DNA of 24,000 nt from Symbiobacteriaceae bacterium (GTDB lineage: Bacteria; Bacillota; Sulfobacillia; Symbiobacteriales; Symbiobacteriaceae): positions 5,985 through 29,984 of the forward strand of contig DASXVX010000073.1 of NCBI GenBank assembly GCA_036504075.1. Direction: 5' to 3'. The position numbers and the translations under genes were made by a program. How positions within the stretch are numbered: the first letter of the stretch is position 1; each line of letters opens with the position of its first letter. The notes beneath the pieces were generated by a model, which saw only the letters and a program-made list of their open reading frames with translations, did not search any database and had not been told where the DNA came from. Positions 967-20,742 of this stretch are shown piece after piece.

Positions 967-996
967 GGCCGGGCCGCCGAAAGAGGCGGCCCGGCC
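967..996 (-). terminator. GC-rich stem-loop downstream of the minus-strand redox operon (possible terminator)
   Basis: GGCCGGGCCGCC-gaaaga-GGCGGCCCGGCC, a perfect 12-bp stem. It lies between the stop of the GrdB-like gene (1119) and the gerAB-like start (859). No clear U-tract follows on the minus strand, so terminator function is uncertain. Confidence 0.35.
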
Positions 997-1118
997 GGCT
1001 TATGGGATGGGTCCGCTGCGGTCTTACGTCGCCTGGCACCATTGTACAGGTCCCGGCTGAAACCTCAGCCACAACATCCTATGCGATCTTGCTGAAGAGT
1101 GCATCCGGGGTGCCCGCC

Positions 1119-3157: not shown

Positions 3158-3508
3158 TCAGAGAATCAGCGGCGCATAGCCCTGGGCAACCAGATCGGAC
3201 AGACTGGGGTGGCCGTGCAGTTCACCCTTGATCGGCAGACCGCTCTGCTTCACGTCCTCGGCTACGCCAAACGCCCCTGCGCAGTACTCGCAGACGCCGC
3301 CGATCAGCCCGAGTTCTTTCGTGGCCCGGTAGACATCGTGGTACTTGTTCTCGGGGTCTTCCAGCGTCTTGACCCAGGTGGTGCCGGCGCCGTCAAAAAT
3401 CACGGAGACTTCGTGACCGGCGTTGTGCAGATCCTGGGCGTACAGGAGGCCGTGCAGGGCACGGGCCAGCTCCTGGGGGCCGGCGTGAACGACAATCGCA
3501 AACTTCAT
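3158..3508 (-). CDS. DsrE/DsrF-like family protein (Cys form, CxxC)
   Basis: MKFAIVVHAGPQELARALHGLLYAQDLHNAGHEVSVIFDGAGTTWVK...LIGGVCEYCAGAFGV..., 116 aa. ATG 3508 has a strong GGAGG RBS. The 93-aa N-terminal extension in the track ORF (Pro/Arg-rich) is rejected. Confidence 0.75.
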   Translation of the reverse strand: MKFAIVVHAGPQELARALHGLLYAQDLHNAGHEVSVIFDGAGTTWVKTLEDPENKYHDVYRATKELGLIGGVCEYCAGAFGVAEDVKQSGLPIKGELHGHPSLSDLVAQGYAPLIL

Positions 3509-3651: not shown

Positions 3652-4602
3652 TCACAGGCCGGGTTGGTGCGGGGGGGCCGGCACGCGGGCGGCCAGATAT
3701 TGATCGATGTGCACCGCCGCAATGTTGCCGGTGCCCAGTGCAATCGCGACCTGCTGGGTCATCGGGCGGAGATCGCCGGCGATCCATACGCCCTCAACGC
3801 TGGTGTCGCCCCGCTGGGATTTGGGCTCGACATGACCGCTCGCCGCCAGGGTCAACCCAAGCTGCTGGGCCAGGTCGGTGCGCGGGACTTTGGGACCGGC
3901 CACGAAAAAGGCGTCAGCGGCAATCGCCGTCCCATCGTTCAGGGTGACCGACTCCAGGCAGCCCTTGTGGCCGGTCAACTTCTGGATATCCCCCTGATAC
4001 AGCGGCAGATGGCGCGCCGCAATCCAGGCGCGGTCCGCCTCCCGGAGGTCATCTTCGCCGGTGAGCAGCAGCAGTAGGTCCTGCGAATGCTCATAGAGGT
4101 GCTTTGCCGTTCCGACGGCCCCCCGGCTTTTGCCGACCCCGATGACAAGCGTTCGCTTGCCGGCGATCTCCGGCGCTTCGCAGTCCGGGCAGTAATACAG
4201 GTTGCACTTGCCGGCGTAGGCAAGGCAGGGGCGGTAGTCGCCATCCACCGTGGGATGATAACGCGCCACGCCCGTGGCCAGGAGCAGCGTCCGGCCGGCG
4301 TACCAGGAGCCGTCTTCGGTTTCGGCCACGAAGGCGCCCGCCTGCCCGGAGACCCGCACGACGTTCGCCGGTTTCACTTCGGCTCCCATCGCTTCGGCCT
4401 GCCGGCGCAGCTCCTGCTGAAGCTGGATGCCGGTCCGTCCCGCGAAGCCGGGGACGTTCTCCAGAGTGTTCAGGGTGTAGAACAGGGGACCCGTCCGGCG
4501 GTCCAGGACCAGCGCCGAGCGCCCGTGCCACGCCAGGTGCAGGGCGGCGCTCAGCCCGGCCGGCCCGCCGCCGATCACCAGGGTGTCGTAGGTGTCTGTC
4601 AT
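3652..4602 (-). CDS. Thioredoxin-reductase-like FAD/NAD(P)-dependent pyridine nucleotide-disulfide oxidoreductase (atypical CPDC redox motif)
   Basis: N-terminal FAD fold YDTLVIGGGPAGLSAALHLA. Redox pair ...NLYYCPDCEAPE... A second dinucleotide fold KRTLVIGVGKS. C-terminal GVWIAGDL motif. Confidence 0.8.
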   Translation of the reverse strand: MTDTYDTLVIGGGPAGLSAALHLAWHGRSALVLDRRTGPLFYTLNTLENVPGFAGRTGIQLQQELRRQAEAMGAEVKPANVVRVSGQAGAFVAETEDGSWYAGRTLLLATGVARYHPTVDGDYRPCLAYAGKCNLYYCPDCEAPEIAGKRTLVIGVGKSRGAVGTAKHLYEHSQDLLLLLTGEDDLREADRAWIAARHLPLYQGDIQKLTGHKGCLESVTLNDGTAIAADAFFVAGPKVPRTDLAQQLGLTLAASGHVEPKSQRGDTSVEGVWIAGDLRPMTQQVAIALGTGNIAAVHIDQYLAARVPAPPHQPGL

Positions 4603-5175: not shown

Positions 5176-5865
5176 TTACACTCCGCGCTCCAGTTCCGAT
5201 TTTGCCCGTTCCCGGTTAATCCGAAGTTCCTTGCGCCCTGTCCGGACGATCTCTTCCCGGGCCAAACCCGCCAGCGTGGCACTGACCGTCTCGCGGGTGG
5301 CGCCGATCATGGCGGCCAGGTCCTGGTGGGTCAGGTCGGCGGAAATCAGCGTCCAGGGCCCGTCGCTGTCGGCGCCGAACTCCGCCGCCAGCCGGAGCAG
5401 CAGGTAGAGCACCCGGGAGCGGACATCGCCCATGGCCAGGTGTTCCAGCAGTTCGTGGACTTGCCTGAGCTGCGCGGAGAGCACCTCCACCACCCGCAGG
5501 GCGAGCTGCGGGTGCTGCTGCATCATTCGCTCCACATCGGGCTTGCGCATGAGGCAGAGCATAGTGTCGTCGATGGCTTCGGCATAGGCGCCTTGCGTCC
5601 CGGTCGAGAATTGCCCGACTTCGCCGAAGATGTTGCCGGGGCCCAGGAGGGCGGTGGTAAACTGCTTGCCTTCCGCATTCATCTTGTAAATGCGGACCCG
5701 GCCTTCTTTCAACAGGTAGAGCACTTCGGAGCGGTGCCCGGGCTCCATGATGGTGGTACCCTTCGCGACGACGTTCATGGGCGCGATGCGGTCAACTTCC
5801 ATCAAGGCTTCCCGCGGCAGAACCTCCATGATGTTGATGCGGGACAGGTAACCCAGCTTATCCAC
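5176..5865 (-). CDS. Crp/Fnr-family transcriptional regulator, paralog 1 (no FNR-type Cys cluster)
   Basis: cNMP-binding-like beta-roll (...LYLLKEGRVRIYKMNAEGKQFTTALLGPGNIFGEV...) and a C-terminal HTH, HQDLAAMIGATRETVSATLAGLAREEIV. The recognition helix starts RETVS, like CRP RETVG. GTG start 5865 with GAAGGAGGG RBS, 13 nt after the grx-like stop. Confidence 0.9.
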   Translation of the reverse strand: MDKLGYLSRINIMEVLPREALMEVDRIAPMNVVAKGTTIMEPGHRSEVLYLLKEGRVRIYKMNAEGKQFTTALLGPGNIFGEVGQFSTGTQGAYAEAIDDTMLCLMRKPDVERMMQQHPQLALRVVEVLSAQLRQVHELLEHLAMGDVRSRVLYLLLRLAAEFGADSDGPWTLISADLTHQDLAAMIGATRETVSATLAGLAREEIVRTGRKELRINRERAKSELERGV

Positions 5866-6564: not shown

Positions 6565-7269
6565 ATGAGTCTCAAACAGGGGATTTTTCGTTGGTACACC
6601 GAGTTGGTCACGCCGGGGGCGGCTGAAGTCCCGTTCGTTCGACCGGGGCGTTCGTTGCAGCAAACTACCGTGGCGCTGGTCACTACGGCCGGGGTGCGCC
6701 TGACCGGGCAGGAGCCGTTTGATTGTGAGCACGGCGACCCGACCTTTCGTCCGATTCCCGCCGATGCGGACCTTAGCGCCTTGGTCCCGGACCATACGCA
6801 CTACGATACTGCCGCCCCGCAGGCAGACATCAGCTGCGTCTTTCCCCTGCAAGTGTTGCGGGAACTGGCGGCCGCAGGCGAAATCGGCGGAGTGGCGCCC
6901 GTTCACTTTGGCTTCATGGGTTATATTCCTGACCTGAAGCCGCTGCTGGAACGGTCGATTCCAGAGCTGGTGCAGCGGCTGCAGGCGGCGGGCGCAGGGG
7001 CCGTGCTCCTGTCACCGGGCTGATATATGTGCCATCGGTCCGTTGGACTGATCCAGAGAGGCATCGAAGCCGCCGGCATCCCGACCGTTTCCGTGACACA
7101 TTTACCGCGGGTGACTGCCAAAGTGGGCGTCTCCCGAGCGATCCAGGTACCATGGCCCCTGGGCCAGGCCTGCGGCCCTGCCGGTGAGCAGGAGACCCAC
7201 CGGCTTGTGGTTCGGGCTGCGCTCAGGCTTCTCGCGGAGGCCACTGCCCCCGTTATGGCCCAGTTATAG
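6565..7269 (+). CDS. Short GrdB-like selenoprotein, paralog 2; in-frame UGA (Sec) at 7021-7023
   Basis: Track ORFs 6484..7023 and 7027..7269 share one frame and are separated only by TGA-TAT. Read-through gives ...GAGAVLLSPG-U-YMCHRSVGLIQRGIEAAGIPTVSV..., a U-x-x-C motif at the same aligned position as paralog 1. Likely start is ATG 6565 (MSLKQGIF...) with a GGAGGA RBS 6 nt upstream. Confidence 0.85.
7034..7052 (+). promoter_or_regulatory. SECIS-like recoding hairpin for UGA 7021-7023
   Basis: AUCGGUCC-GUU-GGACUGAU, an 8-bp stem with one G.U, starting 11 nt after the UGA. It has the same architecture as the paralog-1 hairpin. The single stem difference (A to G) keeps pairing as G.U in the sense RNA only. 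Confidence 0.7.
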
Positions 7270-7274
7270 CGTTT

Positions 7275-7306
7275 CCCCGGCAGGCGCCAGGCCTGCCGGG
7301 GTTTTT
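7275..7306 (+). terminator. Rho-independent terminator after GrdB-like 2
   Basis: CCCCGGCAGGC-gccag-GCCTGCCGGGG followed by TTTTT, 5 nt after the TAG at 7267-7269. Confidence 0.85.
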
Positions 7307-7404: not shown

Positions 7405-8652
7405 ATGCGTTATCTATCGTGGCTGCTGGCGGTTGTGGTGATCCTGAGCGGCTGTGCCAAGGGGCCGGCCCCGGTGCCCGTCAAAGCGGCGCCGGCGGAC
7501 CCGGCGACCGCACCCTGGTCGGAGGTAGTGGCACAGGCGAGAGATCACGAGGTTTCCATCTATATGTGGGGCGGCTCGGATTCCATCAATACCTGGATGG
7601 ACACCTACGTCTCTGGGCAGGTGAAAGCCAAGTACGGCGTTACCCTGAAGCGAGTGCCGGTGGCTGCCACCGCCGATGCCATCAACAAGTTGCTGGGCGA
7701 GAAGCAGGCCGGACGCACCACTGGGTCGGCGGACCTGGTCTGGATCAACGGCGAGAACTTCAAGGCGGCCCGGCAGGGCGACCTGCTCTGGGGGCCGTTT
7801 GCAGAGCGGCTGCCCAGCTTTACGGCCTACTACGACACGAAGGCCCCGGACGTCGCTTCAGACTTTGGCTACCCGGTGGAGGGCTATGAGGTTCCCTGGG
7901 GGAAGGCGCAGTTTGTCATGACGTACGACAGCGCCAAGGTGCCCAACCCGCCGAAGAGTTTTGCCGAGCTGGCTGCGTGGGTGAAGGCCCATCCCGGGCG
8001 GTTCACCTACCCGGCTCCGTCCACGGACTTCACCGGCAGCGCCTTCCTGCGCATGGCGCTGTACGAAACCACCGGCGGCTACCAGCACTATCTTGGGGCC
8101 TACGACCAGGCGAAGCTGGAGGCCAAGTGGCAGAAGACCTTCGACTACCTGAACGGCCTGAGGCCGTATCTGTGGCGGCAAGGCACGACCTACCCGGAGA
8201 ACCTGGCGAAGCTGGATCAACTTTACGCCGACGGCGAGGTCTGGATGTCCATGCATTATGATCCCAGCGCCGCTGCCAACCTGATCGCCAAGGGCACCTA
8301 TCCGGCCACGACCCGGACGTTCCTCTTCGACGCAGGCACCATCGCCAATACGCACTTCCTGGCTGTTCCCTTCAATGCTCCCAACAAAGCCGGCGCCATG
8401 GTCGTCGCCGACTTCCTGCTCTCCCCCGAGGCCCAGCTTTCCAAGTTCGACCCGAAGAACTGGGGCGACTTCCCGGCGTTTGATCCGGCCAAGGCGCCTG
8501 CGGGCGTCAAGGACGGCCTGACGAAGATCGACCTGGGGCCGGCGGTTCTGCCCCCCGCCGTATTGGCTCAGCACCGGGTGCCGGAGATCGAGGCAGACTA
8601 CCTGAAGCATCTGCAGGACGGCTGGACCCGGTATGTGGCGCAGGCAAAGTAG
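7405..8652 (+). CDS. ABC transporter substrate-binding lipoprotein, YnjB-like
   Basis: Signal peptide plus lipobox MRYLSWLLAVVVILSGC. Motifs recalled from E. coli YnjB-type binding proteins include ...SADLVWINGENFKAARQGDLLW..., ...RFTYPAPSTDFTGSAFL..., ...LRPYLWRQGTTYP..., ...NTHFLAVPFNAPNKAGAMVVADFLLSPEAQLSKFDPKNWGD... Confidence 0.75.
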   Translation: MRYLSWLLAVVVILSGCAKGPAPVPVKAAPADPATAPWSEVVAQARDHEVSIYMWGGSDSINTWMDTYVSGQVKAKYGVTLKRVPVAATADAINKLLGEKQAGRTTGSADLVWINGENFKAARQGDLLWGPFAERLPSFTAYYDTKAPDVASDFGYPVEGYEVPWGKAQFVMTYDSAKVPNPPKSFAELAAWVKAHPGRFTYPAPSTDFTGSAFLRMALYETTGGYQHYLGAYDQAKLEAKWQKTFDYLNGLRPYLWRQGTTYPENLAKLDQLYADGEVWMSMHYDPSAAANLIAKGTYPATTRTFLFDAGTIANTHFLAVPFNAPNKAGAMVVADFLLSPEAQLSKFDPKNWGDFPAFDPAKAPAGVKDGLTKIDLGPAVLPPAVLAQHRVPEIEADYLKHLQDGWTRYVAQAK

Positions 8653-9499
8653 CCCGTATCTGCTTCTTCTGCCGGCCCTGTTGGTGCTGGGGGTGCTCTT
8701 CCTGGGCGGGCTGGCCGTCGCCTTTGAGCAAAGCCTGGGGGTCATGCCGGCGCTGGGGCGCCTGTCGCCCACCCTGGACTATGTCCGGATCGTTCTGGCC
8801 TCCCGGGAGTTCTGGACCGGTTTCGGCCTGACCGCCTACATTGCGCTGACGGCCACGGTGCTCGCCTGCGCCGCCGGCCTCCTGCTGGCGGTTGGGTTGG
8901 CTGCGGCCGGCTCCCGGAGCGATACCCTGCTGGCCCGGCTGCCGCTGGTGGTGCCCCATACCGTGGCGGCCTACCTGACGATGATCTGGCTCTCACAGTC
9001 TGGATTGCTGGCCCGGCTGGCCTTTCGGGCGGGCCTGATCCGGGAGCCGGGAGGGTTCCCCGCCCTGGTCAACGACCCGTACGGGCTGGGCATCATCCTG
9101 ACCTACGTCTGGAAAGAGGCGCCCTTCGCAGCGCTTATGCTCTATCCGCCGCTGGCGGCGGCGGGCCGGGGTCTGCTGGACGCGGCGGCGACCTTGGGCG
9201 CCGGCCGGCTCCAGCGCTGGCGCCACGTGATCCTGCCGCTGGTGGCGCCGGCGCTGGGCGCGGTGGCACTCATCATCTTCAGCTATACGTTTGGCGCTTA
9301 CGAGGTGCCGTTTCTCCTGGGACAGACTTATCCCCGGACTTTGCCGGTGGCGGCAGTGGAGCGGTTCCTCAGTCCGGATCTGGCCGACCGCCCGGTGGCG
9401 ATGGTCTATAATCTGGTCATCACGCTCATGACCAGTGCGGCGGTCTGGCTCTACCTGGGGCGGTTGGCGCCCCGGCTGGAACGGGGGAAGGGGACATGA
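8633..9499 (+). CDS. ABC transporter permease 1 (YnjC N-half-like)
   Basis: Multi-TM protein. N-terminus ...SSPYLLLLPALLVLGVLFLGGLAV..., typical of binding-protein-dependent permeases, and an EAA-like loop LLDAAATLGAGRLQRWRHVILPL. ATG 8633 overlaps the SBP 3' end by 20 nt. Confidence 0.75.
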   Translation: MWRRQSSPYLLLLPALLVLGVLFLGGLAVAFEQSLGVMPALGRLSPTLDYVRIVLASREFWTGFGLTAYIALTATVLACAAGLLLAVGLAAAGSRSDTLLARLPLVVPHTVAAYLTMIWLSQSGLLARLAFRAGLIREPGGFPALVNDPYGLGIILTYVWKEAPFAALMLYPPLAAAGRGLLDAAATLGAGRLQRWRHVILPLVAPALGAVALIIFSYTFGAYEVPFLLGQTYPRTLPVAAVERFLSPDLADRPVAMVYNLVITLMTSAAVWLYLGRLAPRLERGKGT

Positions 9500-10263
9500 G
9501 ACGGCTCTCGCTCCTCTGGTTCGGATTACCGCTGGTTCCACTGGTGCTCTGGTCGGTGGCCTTCGGCTGGCGATGGCCGGATTTGCTGCCTGCCGCCTGG
9601 AGCTTCCGGGCCTGGCACTACCTGGGGTCGCCGCCGGCAGGGCTGGGACCGGCGGTGGCGGAGAGCCTCTTCATCGCCCTGGCGGTGACGCTGCTGGCGC
9701 TCCTCATCGGGGTGCCGGCCGGCAAAGCACTGGGCACGTGCACCTTCCGGGGCCGGCGGGCGGTGGAGTTCCTCTTCTACCTGCCGATTATGGTGCCGGG
9801 CGCCTCCGCAGCCATGGGGCTGCAGCCCTGGCTGATCCGGCTCGGGCTCACCGACCGGCCGGCCGGGGTGGTGCTGGTCCATCTCATTCCCGCCTTGCCC
9901 TACCTGATTCGGGCCGCGACCGCCGGGTACGCCGCCCTCGACCCGCTGGTGGAGCAGCAGGCCCGGACTCTGGGGGCTACACCCGCTCAGGCCTGGCGGC
10001 TGGTGGTGCTGCCGGCGCTGGCGCCGGCCCTGGCGGCAGGGGCAGGGCTGGTCTTCATCATCTCGCTCAGCCAGTACCTGCTGACCCTGCTGATCGGGGG
10101 CGGGAAGGTCGTCACCCTGCCGCTCCTGCTCTTTCCCTTTATCTCTGGCGGCGACCGGGCCATCGGCGCAGCCCTGAGCCTGGTCTTTACGGTACCCGGG
10201 CTCCTGCTCTTCTGGCTCCTGGATGCGTGGCTGCGGCGCTATCGGCTGGAGGTGAGATTGTGA
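9496..10263 (+). CDS. ABC transporter permease 2 (YnjC C-half-like)
   Basis: Multi-TM protein with EAA-like loop LVEQQARTLGATPAQAWRLVVLPAL. ATGA start/stop overlap with permease 1. Confidence 0.8.
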   Translation: MRRLSLLWFGLPLVPLVLWSVAFGWRWPDLLPAAWSFRAWHYLGSPPAGLGPAVAESLFIALAVTLLALLIGVPAGKALGTCTFRGRRAVEFLFYLPIMVPGASAAMGLQPWLIRLGLTDRPAGVVLVHLIPALPYLIRAATAGYAALDPLVEQQARTLGATPAQAWRLVVLPALAPALAAGAGLVFIISLSQYLLTLLIGGGKVVTLPLLLFPFISGGDRAIGAALSLVFTVPGLLLFWLLDAWLRRYRLEVRL

Positions 10264-11327
10264 GCGACCTTGTGGTGCATGACCTGACGAAGCGCTATGG
10301 CGGCGGGGCCGGGATCGAAGCGATCGACCTCGCGGCGGCCCCCGGCGAACTGCTGGCCCTGGTTGGCCCGTCCGGGTGCGGGAAGAGTACGCTCCTGCGG
10401 ACCATAGCCGGGCTGACGGCCCCGGACCGGGGCCGGGTGCAGGTGGACGGCCGGGACGTGACCGACCTGCCCCCGGAACGGCGGTCCACCGTGATGCTCT
10501 TCCAGCAGCCGCTGCTGTTCCCCCACCTGACGGTGGCAGGAAACGTGGCGTTCAGCCTCCGGCTCCGGGGCGCAGACCGCCGGGAGGCGGCCGCGACGGT
10601 GGCCGGCGCCCTGCGGACCGTGCAGTTGGAGGGGTTGGACCATCGCTATCCGGACCAGCTGTCGGGCGGCCAGCAGCAGCGGGTGGCCCTGGCCCGTGCC
10701 CTGGCGGCGGCCCCGCAGGTGCTGCTCCTGGATGAGCCCTTCAGCGCCCTGGACGCGCCCTTGCGGGCCGAAATGCGGGAACTGCTCCGGCGCTTACAGC
10801 GGCAACGCAGCCTGACCATGCTCTTCGTCACCCACGACCAGGAAGAGGCGTCACTCCTGGGCGACCGCATCGCCGTCATGCAGGCGGGGCGGCTCCGTCA
10901 GATCGGTGCGGCGGCCGACCTTTACGATCGGCCTGCCTCCGAAGTGGTGGCCCGCTTTTTCGGCGGCGCTGCCCTGGTGCCCGGCCGGGTCATCGAGGGC
11001 CAGTGCTTCACCGAGGTCGGCCCCTTCCCGGCGAACGGGGCGACCGGCGGGGACGTGCTGGCGGTCATCCGGGCCGACCAGGTCATCCTGCAGCCGTGGC
11101 GGGCCGGGCAGCCGGAGGCCCGCATCCTGGACGTGCACTTCGCCGGTGGACTCTTGCTGGCGCAGGTGGAGTGTGCCGGTGTCGTGCTCCAGGCACGGCT
11201 GCAGGTCCACCCGGGCTTTGCACTGGCGCCGGGACAGCCGGTCGCCCTGCGCATCCAGGGGCCGGTCTGGTGCCTGAAGGAGGAGGTGGACCGGTGTCCT
11301 TCACCGTTGACGCTGTCCGCGGACTGA
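10260..11327 (+). CDS. ABC transporter ATP-binding protein (YnjD-like)
   Basis: Walker A GPSGCGKST, Q-loop, signature LSGGQQQRVALARAL, Walker B LLLDEPFSALD, H-loop THDQEEA. GTG 10260 (GGAGGTGAG RBS) overlaps the permease stop (GTGA). The upstream 275 codons of track ORF 9435.. are an alternate-frame artefact over the permease gene. Confidence 0.9.
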   Translation: MSDLVVHDLTKRYGGGAGIEAIDLAAAPGELLALVGPSGCGKSTLLRTIAGLTAPDRGRVQVDGRDVTDLPPERRSTVMLFQQPLLFPHLTVAGNVAFSLRLRGADRREAAATVAGALRTVQLEGLDHRYPDQLSGGQQQRVALARALAAAPQVLLLDEPFSALDAPLRAEMRELLRRLQRQRSLTMLFVTHDQEEASLLGDRIAVMQAGRLRQIGAAADLYDRPASEVVARFFGGAALVPGRVIEGQCFTEVGPFPANGATGGDVLAVIRADQVILQPWRAGQPEARILDVHFAGGLLLAQVECAGVVLQARLQVHPGFALAPGQPVALRIQGPVWCLKEEVDRCPSPLTLSAD

Positions 11328-11848
11328 TTCTCCGGTCCGGCCCGCTGGGGCCGCTGATGGCCATCGGGCTTTATGTGCTGCACTCGTTCGTGCCCTTTCC
11401 GGCCCAGATTCTGACCTTTACCATCGGCGCCGTCTACGGCCCGGTGGGTGGCGTGATACTAAGCTGGGTGGCCGCCATGGCGGGCGCCGCCGTCGCCTTC
11501 GGGCTGGCCCGCTGGGGCGGGCGCCCCCTGGCGGAACGGTTCGTGCCCCGAGCCTACCTGGTGAAGTTCGACACCTGGGTGGAACGCTACGGGGTCCGCG
11601 CCTTGCTGGGACTGCGGCTGATTCCTCTGGTCTCCTTCGATCTGATGAACTACGCCGCCGGCCTCAGCCGGGTCCCCTGGTGGACCTTTCTTTGGACCAC
11701 GGGACTGGGCATCCTGCCCATGACCGTCCTGGAAGTAGTGGCCGCCGACCAGCTCAGGCAAGGCAAGTCGGCCGGACTCTGGCTCATCGGCGCGGCGGTG
11801 CTCCTGACGGCGCTCGTCTGGATCTGGAAACGGAGGCGTGAAGCATGA
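11294..11848 (+). CDS. TVP38/TMEM64 (DedA/SNARE-associated, VTT-domain) family membrane protein
   Basis: ...PLGPLMAIGLYVLHSFVPFPAQILTFTIGAVYGPVGGVILSWVAAMAGAAVAFGLARWGGRP...LLGLRLIPLVSFDLMNYAAGLS... The start is assigned to GTG 11294 after AGGAGGAGGTGG, a 34-nt overlap with the ATPase gene. ATG 11357 is an alternative. Confidence 0.7.
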   Translation: MSFTVDAVRGLILRSGPLGPLMAIGLYVLHSFVPFPAQILTFTIGAVYGPVGGVILSWVAAMAGAAVAFGLARWGGRPLAERFVPRAYLVKFDTWVERYGVRALLGLRLIPLVSFDLMNYAAGLSRVPWWTFLWTTGLGILPMTVLEVVAADQLRQGKSAGLWLIGAAVLLTALVWIWKRRREA

Positions 11849-12441
11849 TTGACACGTATCTGCGCAGGTTTGTCCAACCGGTCTTCGACCAGACGGCCGC
11901 CACCATGGACCGGGCGGGTGCGACGCCCAACCAGGTGACGGTAGGCGCCTTCGCTGTCGGGCTGGCAGCCGGCCCGCTGGTGGCCACTGGCCATCCGTTC
12001 TGTGCCACCGGTGTCCTGTGGCTCTCCGGCTTGCTGGACGTAGTGGACGGGTCGCTGGCCCGCCGGACCGGGCGGAGTTCGGCCTGGGGCACGACCATGG
12101 ACATCGTCTTCGACCGGCTGGTGGAAGTCGGGGTCATGCTGGGATTGGCGGCCCGTTATCCCGCAGCGGGGACGGCGATGCTCTGGCTCATGGGCGCCAT
12201 CATCTTCTCCATGACGGTTTTCCTGACGGTGGGCGCCCTGGCCGAGAAGCAGGGAGTCAAGTCGTTCTACTACCAGGCGGGGGTGATGGAGCGGACGGAG
12301 GGGTTCATCCTCTTCTCGGCGATGATGCTGCTGCCAGCCTATCTGGTGCCGCTGACGTGGCTGTTCGTGGCGGTGGAGAGCTTCACCGGGCTCCAGCGGT
12401 TCTACGAGGCGCATCAGATCTTTTCCCGTAATGACATGTGA
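11845..12441 (+). CDS. CDP-alcohol phosphatidyltransferase family membrane protein (YnjF-like)
   Basis: Signature D-G-x2-A-R-x8-G-x3-D-x3-D is present as DVVDGSLARRTGRSSAWGTTMDIVFDRLVE. Multi-TM. ATGA overlap with the preceding gene. Confidence 0.85.
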   Translation: MIDTYLRRFVQPVFDQTAATMDRAGATPNQVTVGAFAVGLAAGPLVATGHPFCATGVLWLSGLLDVVDGSLARRTGRSSAWGTTMDIVFDRLVEVGVMLGLAARYPAAGTAMLWLMGAIIFSMTVFLTVGALAEKQGVKSFYYQAGVMERTEGFILFSAMMLLPAYLVPLTWLFVAVESFTGLQRFYEAHQIFSRNDM

Positions 12442-12459
12442 AAGCTGGAGGTGGTCTTC

Positions 12460-13893
12460 ATGGAACGTTTTGACCTCGCGGTCATCGGCGCCGGCACTGC
12501 CGGCCTGGTGACGGCGGCAGGCGCGGCCGGGCTGGGTGCCCGGGTCGTCCTGATTGAGCGGGACCGCACCGGCGGCGAGTGCCTGTACACCGGCTGCGTG
12601 CCCACCAAGGCGCTGGTCAAGGCCGCCAAAGTGGCGCACACCGTGGCCACGGCGGGCCGCTTCGGCGTCGCCGTGCAGGGCGTGAGGACCGACTATGCCG
12701 GCGCCCGCGCCCACATGCTCGCGACCATCCGGCAGATTGAGCACCACGATTCCCCCGAACGGTTTCGGAGCCTGGGGGTAACGGTCCACAAGGGGACGGC
12801 CCGGTTCATCTCGCCGACCCGGCTGGAGGTGGACGGCGAGCTCCTGGCGGCGAACAAGACGGTGATCGCTACGGGTTCGCGCTCCGTCGCTCCGCCCATC
12901 GAAGGGCTGGCGGCAACCGGTTTCTGGTCCCACGTGGAGGCGCTGGCGGCTGTTCGGCTGCCCCGTTCGGTGATCGTGCTGGGCGCCGGACCGATCGGCC
13001 TGGAGTTTGCCCAGGTCTGGACCCGGTTTGGCGTGCAGGTGACCGTGCTGGAACGCGCCCCACAGATTCTGATCCGGGAGGATGCCGAGGCAGCAGAAAT
13101 GGCCGGGGCGATCCTGGCCGCCGAAGGGGTGGCGCTCGTCACCGGCTTTGAAGCGGTTCGGGCCCACCGCGACGGTACGCAAAAGGTGATCGCGGGCCGG
13201 ACGGCAGATGGCCGGGACCAGGAGTACCGGGCGGACGAGCTGTTCGTGGCCGCCGGCCGCGCGCCGAACCTGGAGGAGCTGAACCTGGAAGCCGCCGGTG
13301 TGGCCTTCGACCGCCGCCGCATCCTGGCGGACGCGTCCCTGCGTACCACCGCCCGCAACATCTGGGGGGTGGGGGATACGGTCGGCCCCTACCTGTTCAC
13401 CCACACGGCGAACTACCAGGGGCGGCTGGTGGTCGGGAATGCGCTCCTGCCGGTCCGCCGGAAGGCTGACTACGGCGTCGTGCCCTGGACGACGTTCCTC
13501 GACCCCGAAATCGCCCATCTGGGCCTGACGGAAGCGGAGGCGAGGGAGCAACACGGCGATGGGGTCAAGGTGTTCCGTTACGCCATGAGCGACCTGGATC
13601 GGGCCATCACCGACGGCGAAGAGCGAGGGTTTGTCAAGGTGATCACCGACCAGCGTGGCCTGATTTTGGGGGCGCACATCGTCGGTCCCCACGCCGGGGA
13701 CCTGATCCATGAACTGGCCCTGGCCAAGCGGGAAGGGATCGGCATCGGTGCCGTCTCCCAGATGATTCACGCCTACCCGACCCTGGCCGAAGGGGTCCAG
13801 CGCGCAGCGGACCAGTACTGGCGCGAGCGGTTGTTTGGTGGCACCAGTCCGGCGGGCCGCTGGCTGAAGCGGGCCGTGCGGCTGTTCAACTAA
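12460..13893 (+). CDS. Class-I flavoprotein pyridine nucleotide-disulfide oxidoreductase (dihydrolipoamide dehydrogenase / mercuric reductase-like)
   Basis: FDLAVIGAGTAGLVTA FAD fold, redox-active GGECLYTGCVPTK (CxxxxC), NAD fold VIVLGAGPIGLEFA, and a C-terminal dimerisation-domain HAYPTLAE motif. ATG 12460 lies 8 nt after GGAGG. The track start, GTG 12451, falls inside the RBS. Confidence 0.85.
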   Translation: MERFDLAVIGAGTAGLVTAAGAAGLGARVVLIERDRTGGECLYTGCVPTKALVKAAKVAHTVATAGRFGVAVQGVRTDYAGARAHMLATIRQIEHHDSPERFRSLGVTVHKGTARFISPTRLEVDGELLAANKTVIATGSRSVAPPIEGLAATGFWSHVEALAAVRLPRSVIVLGAGPIGLEFAQVWTRFGVQVTVLERAPQILIREDAEAAEMAGAILAAEGVALVTGFEAVRAHRDGTQKVIAGRTADGRDQEYRADELFVAAGRAPNLEELNLEAAGVAFDRRRILADASLRTTARNIWGVGDTVGPYLFTHTANYQGRLVVGNALLPVRRKADYGVVPWTTFLDPEIAHLGLTEAEAREQHGDGVKVFRYAMSDLDRAITDGEERGFVKVITDQRGLILGAHIVGPHAGDLIHELALAKREGIGIGAVSQMIHAYPTLAEGVQRAADQYWRERLFGGTSPAGRWLKRAVRLFN

Positions 13894-13912: not shown

Positions 13913-14686
13913 TCATGAGCCAGAATGGTTTCTCTGCTTCTCAGGCAGGCGGATGCGCAGAATGTCTGTTTCGGCGAAAAGCGGGCCGACGGAAAGGCCG
14001 AGACGGCGGTAGACCGATTCGGGAATGCCGATGTCCGCCAGGTAGAGATCGCCGACAAACGGCGCGGCAACTGGCCCCATCAACCCGATCTTGGGAAGGG
14101 CCAGGGTAAGGGTGGCCCGTGCCCGAATGCACGGACCGCACGGCGCTCCGCTGGTGACATCCAGGCCGGAGGGCGCGTCGAGAGCCAGCACCGGCAGCCG
14201 CGACCGGGTCGTCCACTCGATCAGTTCCGCGGTAGCGCCTTGCACGGGCCCGGTCAGGCCGTAGCCCACCAGCGCATCCAACACCAGGGCGCCCTGCGGC
14301 AGCGTCGACGGGAGCGGCGGCTCCGTACTGATAAAGACGCCCATTTGCCGCAAGGTGTGAAGCTGGTGCCCGGGGACTCCGGCGTAGGTCCCGGCGGGGG
14401 CCGACAGGACGACGTGCACGGGTAGTCCCCACCGCTGGAGATGCCTGGCGGCCACCAGCCCGCCGCCCCCGTTGTTGCCGCGCCCGGCCAGCACGACGAG
14501 GCTCTCCACGCCGCCAAGGTCTCTGGCCAGTTGCTGCGCCAGACGTGCCAGATGATGGCCGGCCAGTTCCATCATCTGGAGGAGCGCGATCCCTGCCTCC
14601 TCCATCATCAGGCGGTCCACTTCCCGCATCTCTTCGCCGGTCAAAGCCGGAATCTCCACACCAGTCAGCGGTTCATCGGTTGGCAT
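13913..14686 (-). CDS. NAD(P)H-hydrate epimerase (stand-alone YjeF N-terminal domain)
   Basis: ...LMMEEAGIALLQMMELAG...VVLAGRGNNGGGGLVAARHL...VLDALVGYGLTGP...ALDAPSGLD... ATG 14686 with GGAGG RBS. Convergent with the preceding operon. Confidence 0.8.
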   Translation of the reverse strand: MPTDEPLTGVEIPALTGEEMREVDRLMMEEAGIALLQMMELAGHHLARLAQQLARDLGGVESLVVLAGRGNNGGGGLVAARHLQRWGLPVHVVLSAPAGTYAGVPGHQLHTLRQMGVFISTEPPLPSTLPQGALVLDALVGYGLTGPVQGATAELIEWTTRSRLPVLALDAPSGLDVTSGAPCGPCIRARATLTLALPKIGLMGPVAAPFVGDLYLADIGIPESVYRRLGLSVGPLFAETDILRIRLPEKQRNHSGS

Positions 14687-15314: not shown

Positions 15315-15404
15315 TGGTTTTGTGAACTGGCTTACAGACGATGCCCAAGAATGCCTGTATACTATTGCCGACTGCGATCAACGGACACGACGGGAGTGCG
15401 TGGC
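15315..15404 (+). repeat. Copy B of the ~90-nt duplicated promoter/leader module
   Basis: See 6213..6303. Here the conserved leader block CAACGGACACGACGGGAGTGCGTGGC is followed by about 70 nt of unrelated sequence before the MCP RBS. Confidence 0.8.
15321..15363 (+). promoter_or_regulatory. Second CRP-type operator (TGTGAACTGGCTTACA, 15321-15336) plus extended -10 (TGTATACT, 15356-15363)
   Basis: The 16-bp box is identical to 6219-6234, with the same 19-nt spacing to TG-n-TATACT. It lies about 115 nt upstream of the MCP start. Confidence 0.65.
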
Positions 15405-15475
15405 CTTTTTTTCGCCTCTTCATCGTGTTGATTACGCCGGGGGCGCGGCCCGACCTGAATGCGGGAGGTATTCAT

Positions 15476-16681
15476 GTGAAAACGGAAATCGGCCTCTGGC
15501 TCCTGGCAGCACTGAGTGCCGGTGGAACAGTGACCGCCATCTGGTGGGCAAGCCGCAGTAGCCGGGAGGCAGCCCACTGGCGGGAACAGGCGGACCGATT
15601 TCGCACGGAACTAGTGGCACACGGCCAGGCCGACGCGACGACAGCCGCACGTTGGCAGCAGTCGGGGATGGTCATCTGCGACTTGGCGGCGACGATGGCT
15701 GAGCGTGCCGAACAGGTGCATGACCGGGCAGAGGCCATTGGGGCGAACGCGTGGTCCAACTCCGCCACCACTGATTCACTGTTGACAGTCGCCGCGGAAC
15801 TGGCGGCGGCCGCCACGCAGGTGACTGCTGCTGCCGAAAGCCAGGCCCGGACCATGCAGGAAATGGCGGCCGATTCAGAAGCCATCTCCGCCAGCTTGCA
15901 AGCCGTCCGGGCTCGGGTGGAGTCGGCGTCCGGGGACAGTGCCGCCAGCCTGGAGGCGGCACGGCGCGGCGGTGGCCGCCTGGAGCATGCGTTGACGGGC
16001 ATCGCCCGCGGGAGCGAGGCGGTCCTTACCGCCGGCGGCACGGTGAAAACTCTGGCCGATGCCACGTCGCAAATCACAGCGATTTCCGCCCAGATCGCCG
16101 ACGTGGCGGAGCAGACCAACCTGCTGGCTCTGAATGCCAGCATCGAGGCCGCCCGGGCCGGCGAGCACGGGCGGGGGTTTGCGGTGGTGGCCCAGGAGGT
16201 TCGCAAACTGGCCGAACGGGCGGCCCTGGCCACGGCGGACATCAGTAAGCTGGCTGTGCGGATCCAGACGGACACAGCCACCGTCATGTCCACCATGGCC
16301 GGTGCGGACCGGGACGTGCAGGCAGGCGTGGCCGCTGCCCGGGAAGCCGGCGCCGGGCTGGCCGAGATCGTGCAGGCGGCCGAGCGCTCTCACGGGGCCC
16401 TGACGGCGGCCGTGGCGATGGTCGGTGACCTGCAGACCCGGGGCGCCGGCCTGGCGCGGGCCATCGGTGAAATTGCTGCGGTGACCGAGGAACACGCCAG
16501 TATGGCGGAACAGGTGAAAGTAAGCTCCCACAGCGTGGCGGACCATGCTCGGGAGATCGCGGGCAAAGCCCGGGCCAACGCCGAAACGACGCAGCTACTG
16601 GTGACCGGGGCAGGTGAGAATCGCACGGCTGCCCTGCGCATTCAGGCCGAGGCCGACATACTTCGGGGGGAAATGCAGTGA
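15476..16681 (+). CDS. Methyl-accepting chemotaxis protein (short, single N-terminal TM)
   Basis: Highly conserved signalling hairpin ...[39 protein letters not shown]... GTG 15476 lies 6 nt after GGGAGGT. The upstream part of track ORF 15341.. covers the promoter/leader. Confidence 0.85.
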
Positions 16682-17154
16682 CGACAACGCGCCTGAGTCG
16701 GGTCCCGGTGCCCGCGGTGGCTGGGGCCGTCGCTCTTCTCGATCAGCTTGCTAAAGCGCTGGCGATCCGACTGTTGCCGGCCAGTGGACTGGTCTATAAC
16801 ACGGGCGCGGCCTTCGGCTTCCTTTCGGGACATGCCTGGGCGTTGGCCGCAGCGGGCCTCGCGGCAATCCCGCTGCTGCTCGGCATGGACCGGCTCTGGC
16901 AGTTCGGACAGGCTGGGCGCTGGGGGCTGGCCCTGGCCCTCGGGGGTGCGGTGGGAAACACGCTGGATCGGCTGCTCAGCGGGCGAGTCGTGGACTTCAT
17001 TACGGTGCCGGGGTATCCCTTTCAATTCAACCTCGCCGATGTAGCAATCCGTCTTGGCGCGATGCTGTTGCTGTTTGACATAATCAGGCACGCCAAGAGC
17101 GAACAGGCGGCCGGACGGGCGAAGCTGCAGACTGTGCGGTCGGGATCCCCCTGA
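16678..17154 (+). CDS. lspA: Lipoprotein signal peptidase (signal peptidase II) family protein
   Basis: LspA motifs: [39 protein letters not shown] start/stop overlap with the MCP gene. Confidence 0.8.
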
Positions 17155-20078: not shown

Positions 20079-20738
20079 ATGCTGCGTAAGACGGCTCTGG
20101 CCATGTTGATGACCTTGATGATGCTGGTGGCTGTGTCCGGGATTGCTAGTGCCCACGCAGTCGTATACCCAAAAACGGCAGTTTCCAACAGCTATCAAGC
20201 CTTTGCGCTGCGTGTACCTACGGAGAAGGAAGTCCCGACCATCCAATTGCGGGTGGAGATGCCTGCCGACTTTGCCGTATCGCGGGTGCGCCCGTTGCCT
20301 GGTTGGACCTATGCCGTGGAGAAGACGGCGGACGGCAAGGCGATCAAGGCGATCACTTGGACAGGCGGCAAGATCCTGCCCGGCGAGTATCAGGACTTTG
20401 AGTTCCAGGGCAAAACGGCCGCGAATCCCGGCAAGTACGCGTTCCGGGCGTTCCAGACGTACGCTGACGGTGAGACGGTCGAATGGACGGGTCCGGCGGA
20501 TGCCAAGACACCGGCTTCGATCGTCGAAGTGGTGGCCGGTGTCACGACCACGGACGCCCACGGTCAGGAGCAAGCGATCGATCACAAGCCCACCGGCGCC
20601 CCTGCCACGCCCCCCGGTGCACCTGCAACTGCTCCGACGTCGGCCCCGGCCGGCTCCAATCCGTGGACGGCTGCGGCCGCGTACGGCGGGTTCGTCCTGG
20701 CGGTCGCGGCGTTGTTGGTCGCCTTTTGGCGTAGATAG
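20079..20738 (+). CDS. ycnI: YcnI-family (DUF1775) extracytoplasmic copper-binding protein with C-terminal TM anchor
   Basis: Signal peptide ...VSGIASA followed by HAVVYPKTAVSNSYQAFALRVPTEKE, giving an N-terminal His after cleavage. Also ...ITWTGGKILPGEYQDFEF..., a Pro/Ala/Thr linker and a TM tail. Confidence 0.75.
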   Translation: MLRKTALAMLMTLMMLVAVSGIASAHAVVYPKTAVSNSYQAFALRVPTEKEVPTIQLRVEMPADFAVSRVRPLPGWTYAVEKTADGKAIKAITWTGGKILPGEYQDFEFQGKTAANPGKYAFRAFQTYADGETVEWTGPADAKTPASIVEVVAGVTTTDAHGQEQAIDHKPTGAPATPPGAPATAPTSAPAGSNPWTAAAAYGGFVLAVAALLVAFWRR

Positions 20739-20742
20739 GCCC

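Follow-up and report, generated by a model that had tools for sequence, protein, structure and literature searches.

The window (the whole stretch of DNA analysed, 24,000 nucleotides) contains a seven-gene block on the + strand together with the features listed here.

2441-2986, - strand: AhpD-like selenoprotein, HCHY-U-QVHH, with an in-frame stop between HCHY and QVHH (TIGR01926, 160.7 bits); loosely linked.
3158-3508, - strand: DsrE-family protein (PF02635).
5176-5865, - strand: Crp/Fnr-family regulator (cNMP_binding and HTH_Crp_2).
6565-7269, + strand: PrdB-like selenoprotein gene, in-frame UGA at 7021-7023, motif SPG-U-YMCH (NCBIfam TIGR04483 PrdB, 139.6 bits, cutoff 300).
7034-7052, + strand: SECIS-like hairpin with 8-bp stem, 10 nt 3' of the UGA.
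7275-7301, + strand: intrinsic terminator that separates the PrdB-like gene from the operon, 11-bp stem with 10 G-C pairs, then TTTTT.
7405-8652, + strand: YnjB-family substrate-binding lipoprotein (SBP), 415 aa (NF008633/PRK11622, 505 bits, cutoff 203; lipobox LSGC).
8633-9499, + strand: ABC permease 1, equivalent to the N-terminal half of YnjC (aligns with YnjC residues 58-235).
9496-10263, + strand: ABC permease 2, equivalent to the C-terminal half of YnjC (BPD_transp_1; aligns with YnjC residues 370-483).
10260-11327, + strand: ABC ATPase with a C-terminal TOBE-like extension, 355 aa (ABC_tran, 130 bits).
11294-11848, + strand: DedA/VTT membrane protein of the YdjX/YdjZ type (COG0398, TVP38; VTT_dom, 99 bits).
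11845-12441, + strand: YnjF-type CDP-alcohol phosphatidyltransferase, 198 aa (CDP-OH_P_transf, PF01066, 56 bits).
12460-13893, + strand: class I flavoprotein disulfide reductase, 477 aa, active site CLYTGC within GGECLYTGC (Pyr_redox_2, 188 bits; Pyr_redox_dim, 105 bits).
22501-23028, - strand: single-domain rhodanese lipoprotein, between CopCD and a cupredoxin, 8.6 kb from the operon.

All seven reading frames of the block (7405-13893) were confirmed, with a third-position GC of 84-86% in those called frames listed by the filter applied. The SBP and permease 1 genes share 20 nt (8633/8652); the two permease genes overlap by 4 nt in ATGA (9496/9499), permease 2 and the ATPase by 4 nt in GTGA (10260/10263); the ATPase and VTT genes share 34 nt (11294/11327), the VTT and transferase genes 4 nt (11845/11848); and 18 nt (12442-12459) separate transferase and reductase. 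Ribosome-binding sites of the GGAGG type are found 5' of the starts at 10260, 11294, 11845, and 12460. Terminator-like matches inside the block are weak only and do not exceed the level of shuffled sequence. Given these weak internal matches and the strong terminator just 5' of the SBP gene, the seven genes look like a single transcription unit, in agreement with the tightly coupled operon of the original prediction; the PrdB-like gene lies directly 5', on a separate transcript.

At the level of sequence, the operon is the counterpart of the uncharacterised ydjXYZ-ynjABCD / ynjE / ynjF neighbourhood of Escherichia coli. In strain K-12 the operon ydjX-ydjY-ydjZ-ynjA-ynjB-ynjC-ynjD is followed by ynjE and ynjF (b1750-b1758), and YdjX and YdjZ are DedA proteins (RefSeq annotation); the same annotation agrees with the ynj family assignments given originally. 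ydjXYZ-ynjABCD forms a single FNR-activated, anaerobically induced transcript (PMC3688515). Pairwise comparison matched the window products with YnjB (40% identity over 366 aa), both halves of YnjC, YnjD (38% over 198 aa), and YnjF (33.5%, full length), and the VTT protein with YdjZ (32%, full length, E 2e-28). Five functions are common to both clusters and correspond to six window genes, YnjC being split: binding protein, both permease halves, ATPase, DedA protein, and YnjF-like transferase. The likeness is therefore stronger than first proposed, the two E. coli DedA proteins having been overlooked. A counterpart of the flavoprotein reductase is absent from the E. coli locus. The window Sec-AhpD, previously called ynjA-like, gave no pairwise match with YnjA at E<1 and has only the Pfam CMD family in common with it; a YnjA homologue was found in none of 80 related loci. 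The AhpD-like and rhodanese genes reported for the window do exist, but they are not tightly linked, lying on the opposite strand 4.4 and 8.6 kb from the operon. No functional paper on YnjB, YnjF, YdjX, or YdjZ was found in the literature searched.

Linkage was assessed in the 51 loci whose flanks reach 5 kb or more to either side; these represent 36 genus-level groups in four phyla. A VTT gene was present no more than 7 kb from the SBP gene in 25 of the 36 groups (none nearby in 11), a transferase gene in 20, and a flavoprotein reductase gene in 18. In the reverse lookup, made independently, ABC genes were located immediately 5' of the transferase homologue in four of six cases; the other two (L089, L090; L numbers denote related loci) have none within 8 kb. 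Linkage of ABC and phosphatidyltransferase genes across genomes was recovered in both directions. The transferase gene is directly 3' of the ATPase gene in at least 12 loci, and the seven-gene order is identical in L036, L060, L072, L075, L088, and L091; elsewhere, order and strand vary by lineage with gene content retained (e.g., Planococcus, Clostridium, spirochaetes). Operons of this type occur in five or more bacterial phyla. Among 59 groups, an APH-family kinase (16 groups) and the transferase (22 groups) never occur together within 7 kb (Fisher p = 1.5e-4), an exclusivity confounded by phylogeny (Desulfobacterota vs Bacillota). Reductase and PrdB-like genes are mutually exclusive in Bacillota clusters.

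PrdB-like homologues that share the TGA at the aligned position are located directly 5' of a YnjB-type SBP gene in L025, L029, L032, L035, L037, L050, and L085, and 3' of the transferase gene in L011; the recurrent upstream PrdB-like selenoprotein (eight other loci) is new here. All nine homologous genes retain the 8-bp stem of the SECIS-like hairpin; the changes seen in it are a compensatory A-U/G-C pair and a single G-U change. Split-ORF homologues of the AhpD-like gene occur near the YnjB systems of L075 (48%) and L068 (36%). The DsrE-family protein is a probable accessory of the island, with homologues (62-65% identical) adjoining the YnjB clusters in two loci, L088 and L033, and close to the transferase gene in L089; the Crp/Fnr-family protein is a candidate regulator, with homologues (41-46% identical) flanking clusters in L088, L075, and L089. 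L092 likewise has an annotated DsrE gene and an annotated Crp gene. Sulfur/selenium-type neighbours that recur near related clusters are rhodanese, TusA/YeeE, DsrE, Grx, Sec-AhpD, and the Sec-PrdB-like protein.

The AF2 model of the SBP (pLDDT 93.8) has the cluster-D SBP fold, and the closest PDB structures in the fold search are about 15% identical; its top matches, each at about that identity, bind 2-aminoethylphosphonate, sugar phosphates, polyamines, iron, or thiamine. The best 50 structural matches include no sulfate, molybdate, or phosphate binder, and no PDB match was obtained at the sequence level for the SBP as a single protein. The fold search with this model does not reveal the ligand class. 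The SBP is a family of its own. The amine-binding residues W255 and D257 of PotD are replaced by invariant N315 and H317 in YnjB-type SBPs and the mature SBP has no Cys, which argues against both a polyamine binder and a soft-metal binder; the automated label 'spermidine/putrescine binding protein' is unlikely to be right, the PotD ligand residues being replaced by Asn and His. Permease 1 scores 20 bits against BPD_transp_1, under the Pfam cutoff of 26.4, and the NCBIfam models closest to the ATPase (PhnT2, PotA) are both under cutoff. A riboswitch search gave no clue to the ligand (TPP riboswitch in none of 14 sources searched).

The transferase carries the complete motif D65xxDGxxARx8GxxxD86xxxD90, invariant in 31 homologues, and the models closest to it describe PIP and AIP synthases, enzymes that use inositol phosphate. 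We know of no report of an unexplained YnjF-dependent phospholipid in E. coli. The Desulfosporosinus cluster carries an additional MprF-type flippase domain (LPG_synthase_TM), and a DedA-reductase fusion lies beside the YnjB system of L080. According to 'Three Bacterial DedA Subfamilies' (mBio 2023; PMC10127716), the COG0398 DedA proteins are putative scramblases of phospholipids, and the partner most often fused to them is PF07992/PF02852; the scramblase role and a link with aerobic metabolism are proposals of that paper. The flavoprotein scores under the cutoffs of the MerA (346, cutoff 454), Lpd, Gor, and Mtr models and has no Cys in its C-terminal tail; its best PDB sequence matches are mercuric reductases, with lipoamide dehydrogenases equally close.

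An importer, a lipid head-group enzyme, a flippase-type protein, and S/Se redox enzymes are here found together, and the operon for that reason probably marks a pathway that nobody has described. As a tentative reading, which we would place somewhat short of even, the YnjB-type ABC importer would take up a small polar solute with a free hydroxyl, probably also bearing a sulfur function or another disulfide-forming group; the YnjF-type transferase would couple the hydroxyl to CDP-diacylglycerol, giving a specialised phospholipid; the COG0398 DedA protein would shift this lipid between membrane leaflets; and the NAD(P)H-dependent flavoprotein disulfide reductase would keep either the lipid head group or a thiol partner in the reduced state. 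In the source organism, the neighbouring PrdB-like selenoprotein with its UxxC motif may help the reduction step. Other lineages apparently fill the reductase role either with YdjY and a PrdB-like selenoprotein together or with the combination of an HdrD-like CCG protein and a rhodanese. Sulfate reducers have the APH-family kinase in place of the transferase, and it would phosphorylate the same hydroxyl. Kinase and transferase never occur together within 7 kb and both esterify a hydroxyl, which argues for a hydroxyl on the solute; with the transferase and the DedA protein as constant partners, and the kinase elsewhere, the gene content speaks for an organic solute that bears a hydroxyl and for a lipid as the product, not for uptake of inorganic sulfur or selenium. 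The reductase could act on an unrelated substrate.

Alternatively, though this is rather unlikely, the genes could be two independent units under shared regulation, a nutrient importer (for a phosphonate, amino alcohol, or vitamin, e.g.) and a DedA-transferase-reductase module for membrane homeostasis, co-located only through a shared trigger (anoxia, thiol stress, e.g.). Most Desulfobacterota and several Chloroflexota loci do have the ABC genes but no VTT, transferase, or reductase, the transferases of L089 and L090 stand without ABC genes, VTT and reductase genes are 5 kb from the ABC-transferase block in L092, and DedA-reductase fusions are common generally (PMC10127716). Against such a division, start/stop overlaps span the ATPase/VTT and VTT/transferase boundaries, the genes stay together in four phyla and in E. 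coli although their order and strand have been rearranged, and the transferase immediately follows the ATPase gene in the loci counted above; by an estimate that assumes a few copies per genome, chance alone would put three families within 7 kb in about 1% of loci, compared with 50-70% observed.

Uptake of an inorganic or simple S or Se species (thiosulfate, selenite, polysulfide), processed by the neighbouring redox proteins, here for selenoprotein synthesis, had been suggested originally and now appears improbable. The S/Se-type neighbourhood on which it was built does recur: rhodanese genes are present in E. coli (YnjE) and in L002, L009, L026, L029, L034, L083, L086, and L087, the last two of these loci also have YeeE/TusA sets nearby, DsrE, Sec-AhpD, and the Sec-PrdB-like protein return at several clusters, and the window has three UGA-containing genes. 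The partner genes, however, do not fit plain S/Se oxyanion uptake, which leaves the two most constant of them, the CDP-alcohol phosphatidyltransferase and the DedA protein, as well as the APH-family kinase and the MprF-type flippase domain, without a role. The best structural matches of the SBP bind organic ligands or iron, with no sulfate, molybdate, or phosphate binder in the top 50, and the SBP, in contrast to the selenium-linked SaoB and SaoX, conserves neither Cys nor Sec; YeeE-type transporters already stand beside some clusters, so a second importer for the same species would be redundant.

Salvage of thiamine, or of a thiamine-like thiazolium or disulfide, by a ThiBPQ-like importer, a ThiK-like kinase, and reductases that regenerate thiamine is very improbable. 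ThiP is a fused permease and ThiQ a short ATPase, as are YnjC and YnjD of E. coli, and the structural neighbours of the SBP include TbpA (2qry); yet the matches of the SBP to the thiamine-SBP model TIGR01254 and of all three kinases tested to ThiK (28-40 bits) are weak and far under the family cutoffs (93 and 299), permeases and ATPase fit PhnU/V/T and Pot models better than ThiP/Q, the TPP riboswitch is absent from the sources searched, and phosphatidyltransferase and DedA protein would have no role. A mobile metal or metalloid (Hg, Te, Se, Cu) resistance island, with a MerA-like flavoprotein reducing toxic species brought in by the ABC system, is scarcely credible in spite of merR-merF-merA directly 5' and IS21 3' of the same seven genes in L088 (L033 being similar), the mercuric reductases among the flavoprotein matches, and CopCD and cupredoxin in the window, because the flavoprotein lacks the NmerA domain and C-terminal Cys pair, stays under the MerA cutoff, and is no nearer MerA than lipoamide dehydrogenases, most loci have no metal genes nearby, and the SBP offers no Cys ligands.

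Among known systems, the SAO locus (Haft and Gwadz 2022, bioRxiv 10.1101/2022.07.06.499078) likewise sets an ABC importer within a conserved selenoprotein neighbourhood that includes a DsrE-like protein; its protein families are unrelated to those of the window, SaoB is similar to amino-acid binding proteins and contains a CU motif, whereas the window SBP and permeases have neither Sec nor conserved Cys, and its MerB-like enzyme is absent here. D-proline reductase PrdB and glycine reductase GrdB are homologous to the window selenoprotein over about 210 residues and share Sec in the UxxC context and the SECIS-like hairpin; the window protein is under both family cutoffs (139.6 vs 300; 55.9 vs 65.45), has no PrdA or GrdE pyruvoyl subunit gene with it in the window, and adjoins an ABC importer, not Stickland fermentation genes. 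PhnSTUV, PotABCD, and ThiBPQ are, like the window system, type I importers with a cluster-D binding protein, and the best models for the window permeases and ATPase are PhnU/V/T and PotA/B/C. The best structural match of the window SBP is STM0429 (PDB 4r6y), which we take to be PhnS, a name not stated in the title of that entry; the SBP is only about 15% identical to any binding protein of solved structure. PIP/AIP synthases and DIPP synthase (PDB 6H53, 5D92, 4MND), the best-scoring characterised relatives of the transferase, share with it the six-helix family and the full DxxDGxxAR...GxxxDxxxD motif; its scores against the inositol-phosphate synthase models (92 and 71 bits) are well under the equivalog cutoffs (180 and 170), and no inositol-phosphate synthase gene was noticed near it. 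The COG0398 DedA-oxidoreductase fusions show the same pairing of VTT with PF07992/PF02852 that the window has as neighbouring genes around the transferase; the passages considered from PMC10127716 contain no connection to a YnjBCD importer, YnjF, or selenoproteins, and the aerobic link proposed in them contrasts with the anaerobic induction of the E. coli operon. The E. coli cluster shares the YnjB-family SBP (40%), the ATPase (38%), the COG0398 DedA protein (32% to YdjZ), and the transferase (33.5%), and its activation by FNR is paralleled by Crp/Fnr-family regulators on the flanks of the window cluster. It differs in YdjY and three-domain YnjE, both absent from the window, and in YnjA, for which the window has only the distant CMD-family selenoprotein 4.4 kb away; the window adds the flavoprotein disulfide reductase and the PrdB-like selenoprotein, has two permease genes in place of a single YnjC and an additional C-terminal domain on the ATPase compared with YnjD, and has the transferase co-transcribed with the importer, whereas E. 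coli ynjF is on the opposite strand, convergent with ynjE.

The seven plus-strand genes at 7405-13893 are tightly coupled and lie in a GC-rich window (60-71%). They are listed below (SBP, binding protein; VTT, DedA-type protein).

7405-8652, + strand: SBP of the YnjB family (NF008633/PRK11622)
8633-9499, + strand: permease 1, BPD_transp_1, aligned by BLASTP with YnjC residues 58-235
9496-10263, + strand: permease 2, BPD_transp_1, aligned by BLASTP with YnjC residues 370-483
10260-11327, + strand: ATPase, scoring higher against the PhnT2 and PotA models, its best, both below cutoff
11294-11848, + strand: VTT/DedA protein, VTT_dom 99 bits
11845-12441, + strand: CDP-alcohol phosphatidyltransferase (hereafter transferase), DxxDGxxARx8GxxxDxxxD motif
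12460-13893, + strand: flavoprotein disulfide reductase, Pyr_redox_2 and Pyr_redox_dim, CLYTGC

The tight junctions of the original prediction were found as overlaps of 20, 4, 4, 34, and 4 nt, followed by an 18-nt gap; GGAGG-type ribosome-binding sites precede the GTG/ATG starts at 10260, 11294, 11845, and 12460, and the called frames listed by the codon-position filter have 84-86% GC at third positions. A strong intrinsic terminator (7275-7301; 11-bp stem and T5) stands upstream of the SBP gene, none comparable was found inside the seven-gene block, and the downstream neighbor, a YjeF_N gene (13913-14686), is convergent; the seven genes therefore look like a single transcription unit.

Products were assigned to families with Pfam and NCBIfam models. 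The SBP, with lipobox LSGC, scores 505 bits against the YnjB family (cutoff 203); permease 1 reaches 20 bits for BPD_transp_1, under the Pfam cutoff of 26.4; and the ATPase carries a TOBE-like tail (an extra C-terminal domain). In the transferase the motif D1xxD2GxxAR...GxxxD3xxxD4 is complete, with D65, D68, G69, A72, R73, G82, D86, and D90 invariant in 31 sequences; PgsA models score <20 bits, and the closest characterized relatives are archaetidylinositol-phosphate and PIP synthases, at scores under their equivalog cutoffs (92.1 bits for a cutoff of 180; 70.8 for 170). The flavoprotein belongs to the class I disulfide reductases: it has the FAD and NAD(P)H folds (188 bits for Pyr_redox_2, 72 for Pyr_redox) and the dimerization domain (105 bits for Pyr_redox_dim), with its CxxxxC center in GGECLYTGC and its His...Glu pair (HxxxxE) in HAYPTLAEG. 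It falls under the cutoffs of MerA (TIGR02053, 346 bits, cutoff 454; without the C-terminal Cys pair and the HMA (NmerA) domain) and of dihydrolipoyl dehydrogenase (TIGR01350, 350.8 bits, cutoff 408.8), as well as those of the Gor and Mtr models, and is equidistant from MerA and Lpd by comparison with PDB sequences.

Related loci in other genomes or contigs that carry YnjB-type or transferase clusters are denoted by L numbers. In Planococcaceae (Planococcus, L004-L019, e.g. L005, 7262-9223) the reductase carries a fused DUF1499, and in Desulfofustis (L080, 3786-5942) a fused VTT domain; in spirochaetes (L040, L049, L057) a reductase-VTT pair is accompanied by separate DUF1499 genes. In the window, an LspA-like (Peptidase_A8) gene (16678-17154, + strand) and the MCP gene overlap by 4 nt at the stop of the latter. 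Because a Peptidase_A8 domain is fused in Alicyclobacillus fastidiosus (L089, 13419-15368) to a flavoprotein 48% identical to the window reductase, the LspA-like protein may be a membrane anchor or partner, not a housekeeping signal peptidase.

SBP homologues number in the thousands, the closest named ones being those of Symbiobacteriaceae (59-63%). A scan of one genome per species gave at least 596 loci with a YnjB-type SBP; the best 80 (Bacillota, Chloroflexota, Desulfobacterota, Spirochaetota) were kept, and their six-frame ORFs were scored by phmmer with window and E. coli proteins as queries. Linkage was counted at ≤7 kb from the SBP gene in the 51 loci with ≥5 kb on each side, which form 36 genus-level groups; as extra partners, ORF clusters not overlapping known genes were considered, all-against-all clustering being dominated by antisense shadow ORFs. 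Importer, DedA, transferase, and reductase genes show conserved co-localization: VTT, 25/36 groups; transferase, 20/36; reductase, 18/36. Counts for the other partners were: APH-family kinase, 7/36; PrdB-like, 6/36; YdjY, 5/36; HdrD-like CCG protein, 5/36; rhodanese, 4/36; IU nucleoside hydrolase, 3/36. Assuming few copies of each family per genome, we infer that chance co-localization within 7 kb would be about 1%; set against this, the counts bear out the cross-genome linkage on which the original prediction had depended.

The exact seven-gene order occurs also in L036, L060, L072, L075, L088, and L091 (hosts Metabacillus, two Bacillus lineages, a Geobacillus-like contig, and Salipaludibacillus); Planococcus, Clostridium, and spirochaetes have the same genes in different orders and strands. 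In the Geobacillus-like contig (L088, 270-3337), merR-merF-merA and DsrE precede the seven genes and an IS21 element follows, which hints that the block is able to travel on mobile DNA.

The neighboring genes of the window on which the following paragraphs draw are listed here.

1119-1901, - strand: second PrdB-like selenoprotein gene, in-frame TGA 1368-1370, motif LVPV-U-PVCH
1957-2406: DinB/MST-like gene, adjoining the AhpD-like selenoprotein gene
2441-2986, - strand: AhpD-like selenoprotein (Sec-AhpD), HCHY-U-QVHH, TIGR01926 160.7 bits
3158-6175 (- strand) and 15341-16681 (+ strand): island genes, namely DsrE, thioredoxin-reductase-like, DUF6789/DUF1440 membrane protein, Crp-family regulator, glutaredoxin-like, and MCP-signal
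3652-4602, - strand: the thioredoxin-reductase-like flavoprotein of this island
6565-7269, + strand: PrdB-like gene, in-frame TGA 7021-7023, motif SPG-U-YMCH

The in-frame stops in the genes upstream of the operon are selenocysteine codons. The PrdB-like gene at 6565-7269 sits directly upstream of the SBP gene and is a conserved partner: in eight other loci a homologue carries TGA at this codon of the alignment, and it lies directly upstream of the SBP gene in seven (six Bacillaceae/Bacillales loci and the Symbiobacteriaceae contig L085) and after the transferase gene in Ammoniphilus (L011). An 8-bp hairpin 10 nt past the UGA is kept in 9/9 PrdB-like sequences, with one compensatory pair. PrdB is the closest-scoring family; the scores stay under the PrdB and GrdB cutoffs (TIGR04483, 139.6, cutoff 300; TIGR01918, 55.9, cutoff 65.45), and no match to PrdA or GrdE (pyruvoyl subunit) was found among the window ORFs scanned. 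The gene at 1119-1901 has a hairpin of the same type after its TGA (ATCAGTCC-GGT-GGACTGAT), and its homologue in Anaerolineales (L024, 19992-21044) shares the position of this TGA.

Among Bacillota clusters, nine have the reductase only, six the PrdB-like gene only, and none both (Fisher p = 9e-4), an exclusion pattern which suggests that the two are alternative ways to one reductive step; YdjY is present in most Bacillota clusters having the PrdB-like gene but no reductase. The window has the reductase and the PrdB-like gene together.

Desulfobacterota and some spirochaetes have an operon of the order kinase-ATPase-SBP-permease-permease, in which the kinase is of the APH/choline-kinase family, with weak GntI and ThiK similarity at most and no PDB match. 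Kinase and transferase occur together within 7 kb in 0/59 groups (p = 1.5e-4, confounded by phylogeny). In Desulfosporosinus the cluster is extended by YdjY and a rhodanese, by an MprF-type flippase domain, and by a C_GCAxxG_C_C protein; YdjY, this C_GCAxxG_C_C protein, the LPG_synthase_TM domain, and the kinase were looked for in the window and are absent from it.

Five Desulfovibrionaceae loci (L043, L044, L048, L063, L082) have an orphan YnjB-type SBP gene (47-53% identical) without permease genes, followed by an IU-family nucleoside hydrolase gene, immediately adjacent in four genome loci. L082 differs in having a hypothetical gene of 211 aa between the two, and has an amidohydrolase and PLP enzymes nearby. 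The same type of hydrolase stands beside a full ABC-kinase cluster in Desulfitibacter (L087).

The mechanism, whose steps we infer, is tentative as a whole, at somewhat below even probability. The importer would supply a hydroxylated solute, which the transferase would couple to CDP-diacylglycerol and which, in other lineages, a kinase would phosphorylate instead; the DedA protein would redistribute the lipid, in Desulfosporosinus together with an MprF-like flippase, and the flavoprotein or its alternatives would hold a thiol/disulfide function in the reduced state. COG0398 DedA proteins are bacterial relatives of eukaryotic TVP38. They have been put forward as scramblases, with this type of flavoprotein as their commonest fusion partner; the DedA-reductase fusion is thus already noted, and the passages covered give no link to YnjBCD, YnjF, or selenoproteins (PMC10127716).

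Reverse look-up of transferase homologues found ABC genes directly upstream in four of six and none within 8 kb in two. A reading of the cluster as two independent units under co-regulation appears unlikely. Simple uptake of sulfur or selenium, the role proposed in the original prediction, is quite unlikely in our estimate. A rhodanese gene lies close to the clusters of Anoxybacter and Desulfitibacter, together with YeeE-TusA-YeeE and the gene of a large Fer4/Pyr_redox/CCG protein. For the SBP itself, comparison with PDB sequences gave no match and a profile search marginal local matches only; the AF2 model (pLDDT 93.8) was placed by Foldseek among cluster-D binding proteins (PhnS/STM0429, AfuA, PotD, FutA, TbpA, MctA; STM0429 we take to be PhnS). 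All are about 15% identical and bind very different ligands, so the ligand class cannot be inferred from the fold.

A polyamine ligand is disfavored. W229, W255, and D257 of PotD, presumably ligand residues (aromatic, acidic), align in the profile alignment with invariant Y285, N315, and H317 of the SBP, a replacement which argues against such a ligand, and the PotD model NF007048 gives 16.5 bits (cutoff 582); this suggests that the automated "spermidine/putrescine" label on YnjB-type binding proteins is wrong. Thiamine-type salvage, to which TbpA among the fold neighbors and the ThiK similarity of the kinase might be related, is most improbable; an Rfam search covering 13 related loci besides the window found no riboswitch upstream of any cluster. 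Only two elements were matched, a T-box, which is unrelated, and a Moco riboswitch; the latter lies just 3' of the kinase gene in a YnjB-type operon (L010, 8395-8526) and is of note given that E. coli YnjE carries the annotation molybdopterin synthase sulfurtransferase. The SAO locus was rejected as a match for the cluster, the protein families being unrelated. A metal-resistance island is hardly credible, and the lack of Cys in the mature SBP speaks against a soft-metal site like those of SaoB/SaoX.

To return to the lipid model, a more specific and very unlikely form of it is that the product of the cluster is a lipid-anchored redox carrier of thiol (or selenol-reactive) type, flipped to supply extracytoplasmic Cys proteins. 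A hydroxylated thiol/disulfide compound would be imported and phosphatidylated by the YnjF-type enzyme, then reduced at the cytoplasmic face by the flavoprotein, membrane-tethered in the DedA, DUF1499, and LspA-domain fusions; after flipping by DedA, reducing power or sulfane sulfur would pass to proteins such as YdjY and the YnjE rhodanese. If true, this would be a phospholipid-based transmembrane route for thiol equivalents, alongside DsbD/CcdA.

Island genes (DsrE, DUF6789/DUF1440, Crp-family regulator, glutaredoxin-like, MCP-signal) recur near clusters in Geobacillus-like, Paenibacillus, and Alicyclobacillus contigs, DsrE being 62-65% and the Crp-family regulator 41-46% identical; the thioredoxin-reductase-like gene has no counterpart in the loci checked. 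That the set is found again around the YnjB or transferase clusters of L088, L089, and L092 suggests that a conserved thiol-redox island of larger extent exists, with a regulator of its own. The AhpD-like selenoprotein belongs to a known CxxU selenoprotein family and has homologues near the systems in L075 and L068. A copper-handling group at 20143-23751 (fused CopC-CopD-YtkA protein, 745 aa; opposite-strand rhodanese lipoprotein; cupredoxin) looks unrelated to the operon. Window positions 1-1000 are lower in GC, with an AT skew (+0.21) that is unusual; this stretch has no ORF passing the codon-position test, no Rfam match, and no notable repeat.

YnjF, COG0398 DedA, and YnjBCD form one well-supported module kept in Pseudomonadota, Bacillota, Chloroflexota, Spirochaetota, and partly Desulfobacterota, with interchangeable reductase partners, a conserved selenoprotein among them. 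Several orphan genes become one testable pathway, in which two questions can be tested directly: what YnjF does, and what COG0398 DedA proteins have as substrate. We know of no substrate for COG0398 DedA proteins; among the CDP-alcohol phosphatidyltransferases of E. coli, YnjF alone, to our knowledge, still lacks a function, and the E. coli annotation used assigns it none. The searched literature reported no function for ynjB, ynjF, ynjA/C/D, ydjX/Y/Z, YnjBCD, or COG4134-6; the ydj/ynj genes appear there in expression or screen mentions and an FNR regulon entry only.

In the RefSeq annotation of E. coli K-12 the corresponding locus comprises ydjX (DedA), ydjY, ydjZ (DedA), ynjA (AhpD-like), ynjB, ynjC, ynjD, and ynjE (rhodanese), with ynjF (CDP-alcohol phosphatidyltransferase) convergent with the preceding genes; ydjXYZ-ynjABCD is listed as one FNR-activated operon (PMC3688515). 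The ynj assignments of the original prediction agree with this annotation as far as they went, and the DedA component common to both loci had been missed. The Sec-AhpD gene, proposed as the ynjA counterpart, lies 4.4 kb from the operon on the opposite strand; both proteins have Pfam CMD, Sec-AhpD gave no BLASTP match to YnjA at E<1, and no YnjA homologue was found in 80 related loci. The AhpD link holds for the broader surroundings of the clusters, probably without orthology to YnjA. The single-domain rhodanese lipoprotein (22501-23028), 8.6 kb from the operon amid copper genes, aligns with one YnjE domain at 26% identity (BLASTP, E 5e-5). The E. coli module has YdjY, whereas three YdjY sequences gave no phmmer match at E<0.01 to six-frame window ORFs. 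By BLASTP the SBP resembles YnjB (40% identity, 366 aa) and the ATPase YnjD (38%), the permeases align with the two halves of YnjC, the transferase resembles YnjF (33.5%, full length, 200 aa, E 1e-24), all as predicted, and the VTT protein resembles YdjZ (32%, full length, E 2e-28). On this sequence homology the cluster is a variant of the annotated E. coli neighborhood.
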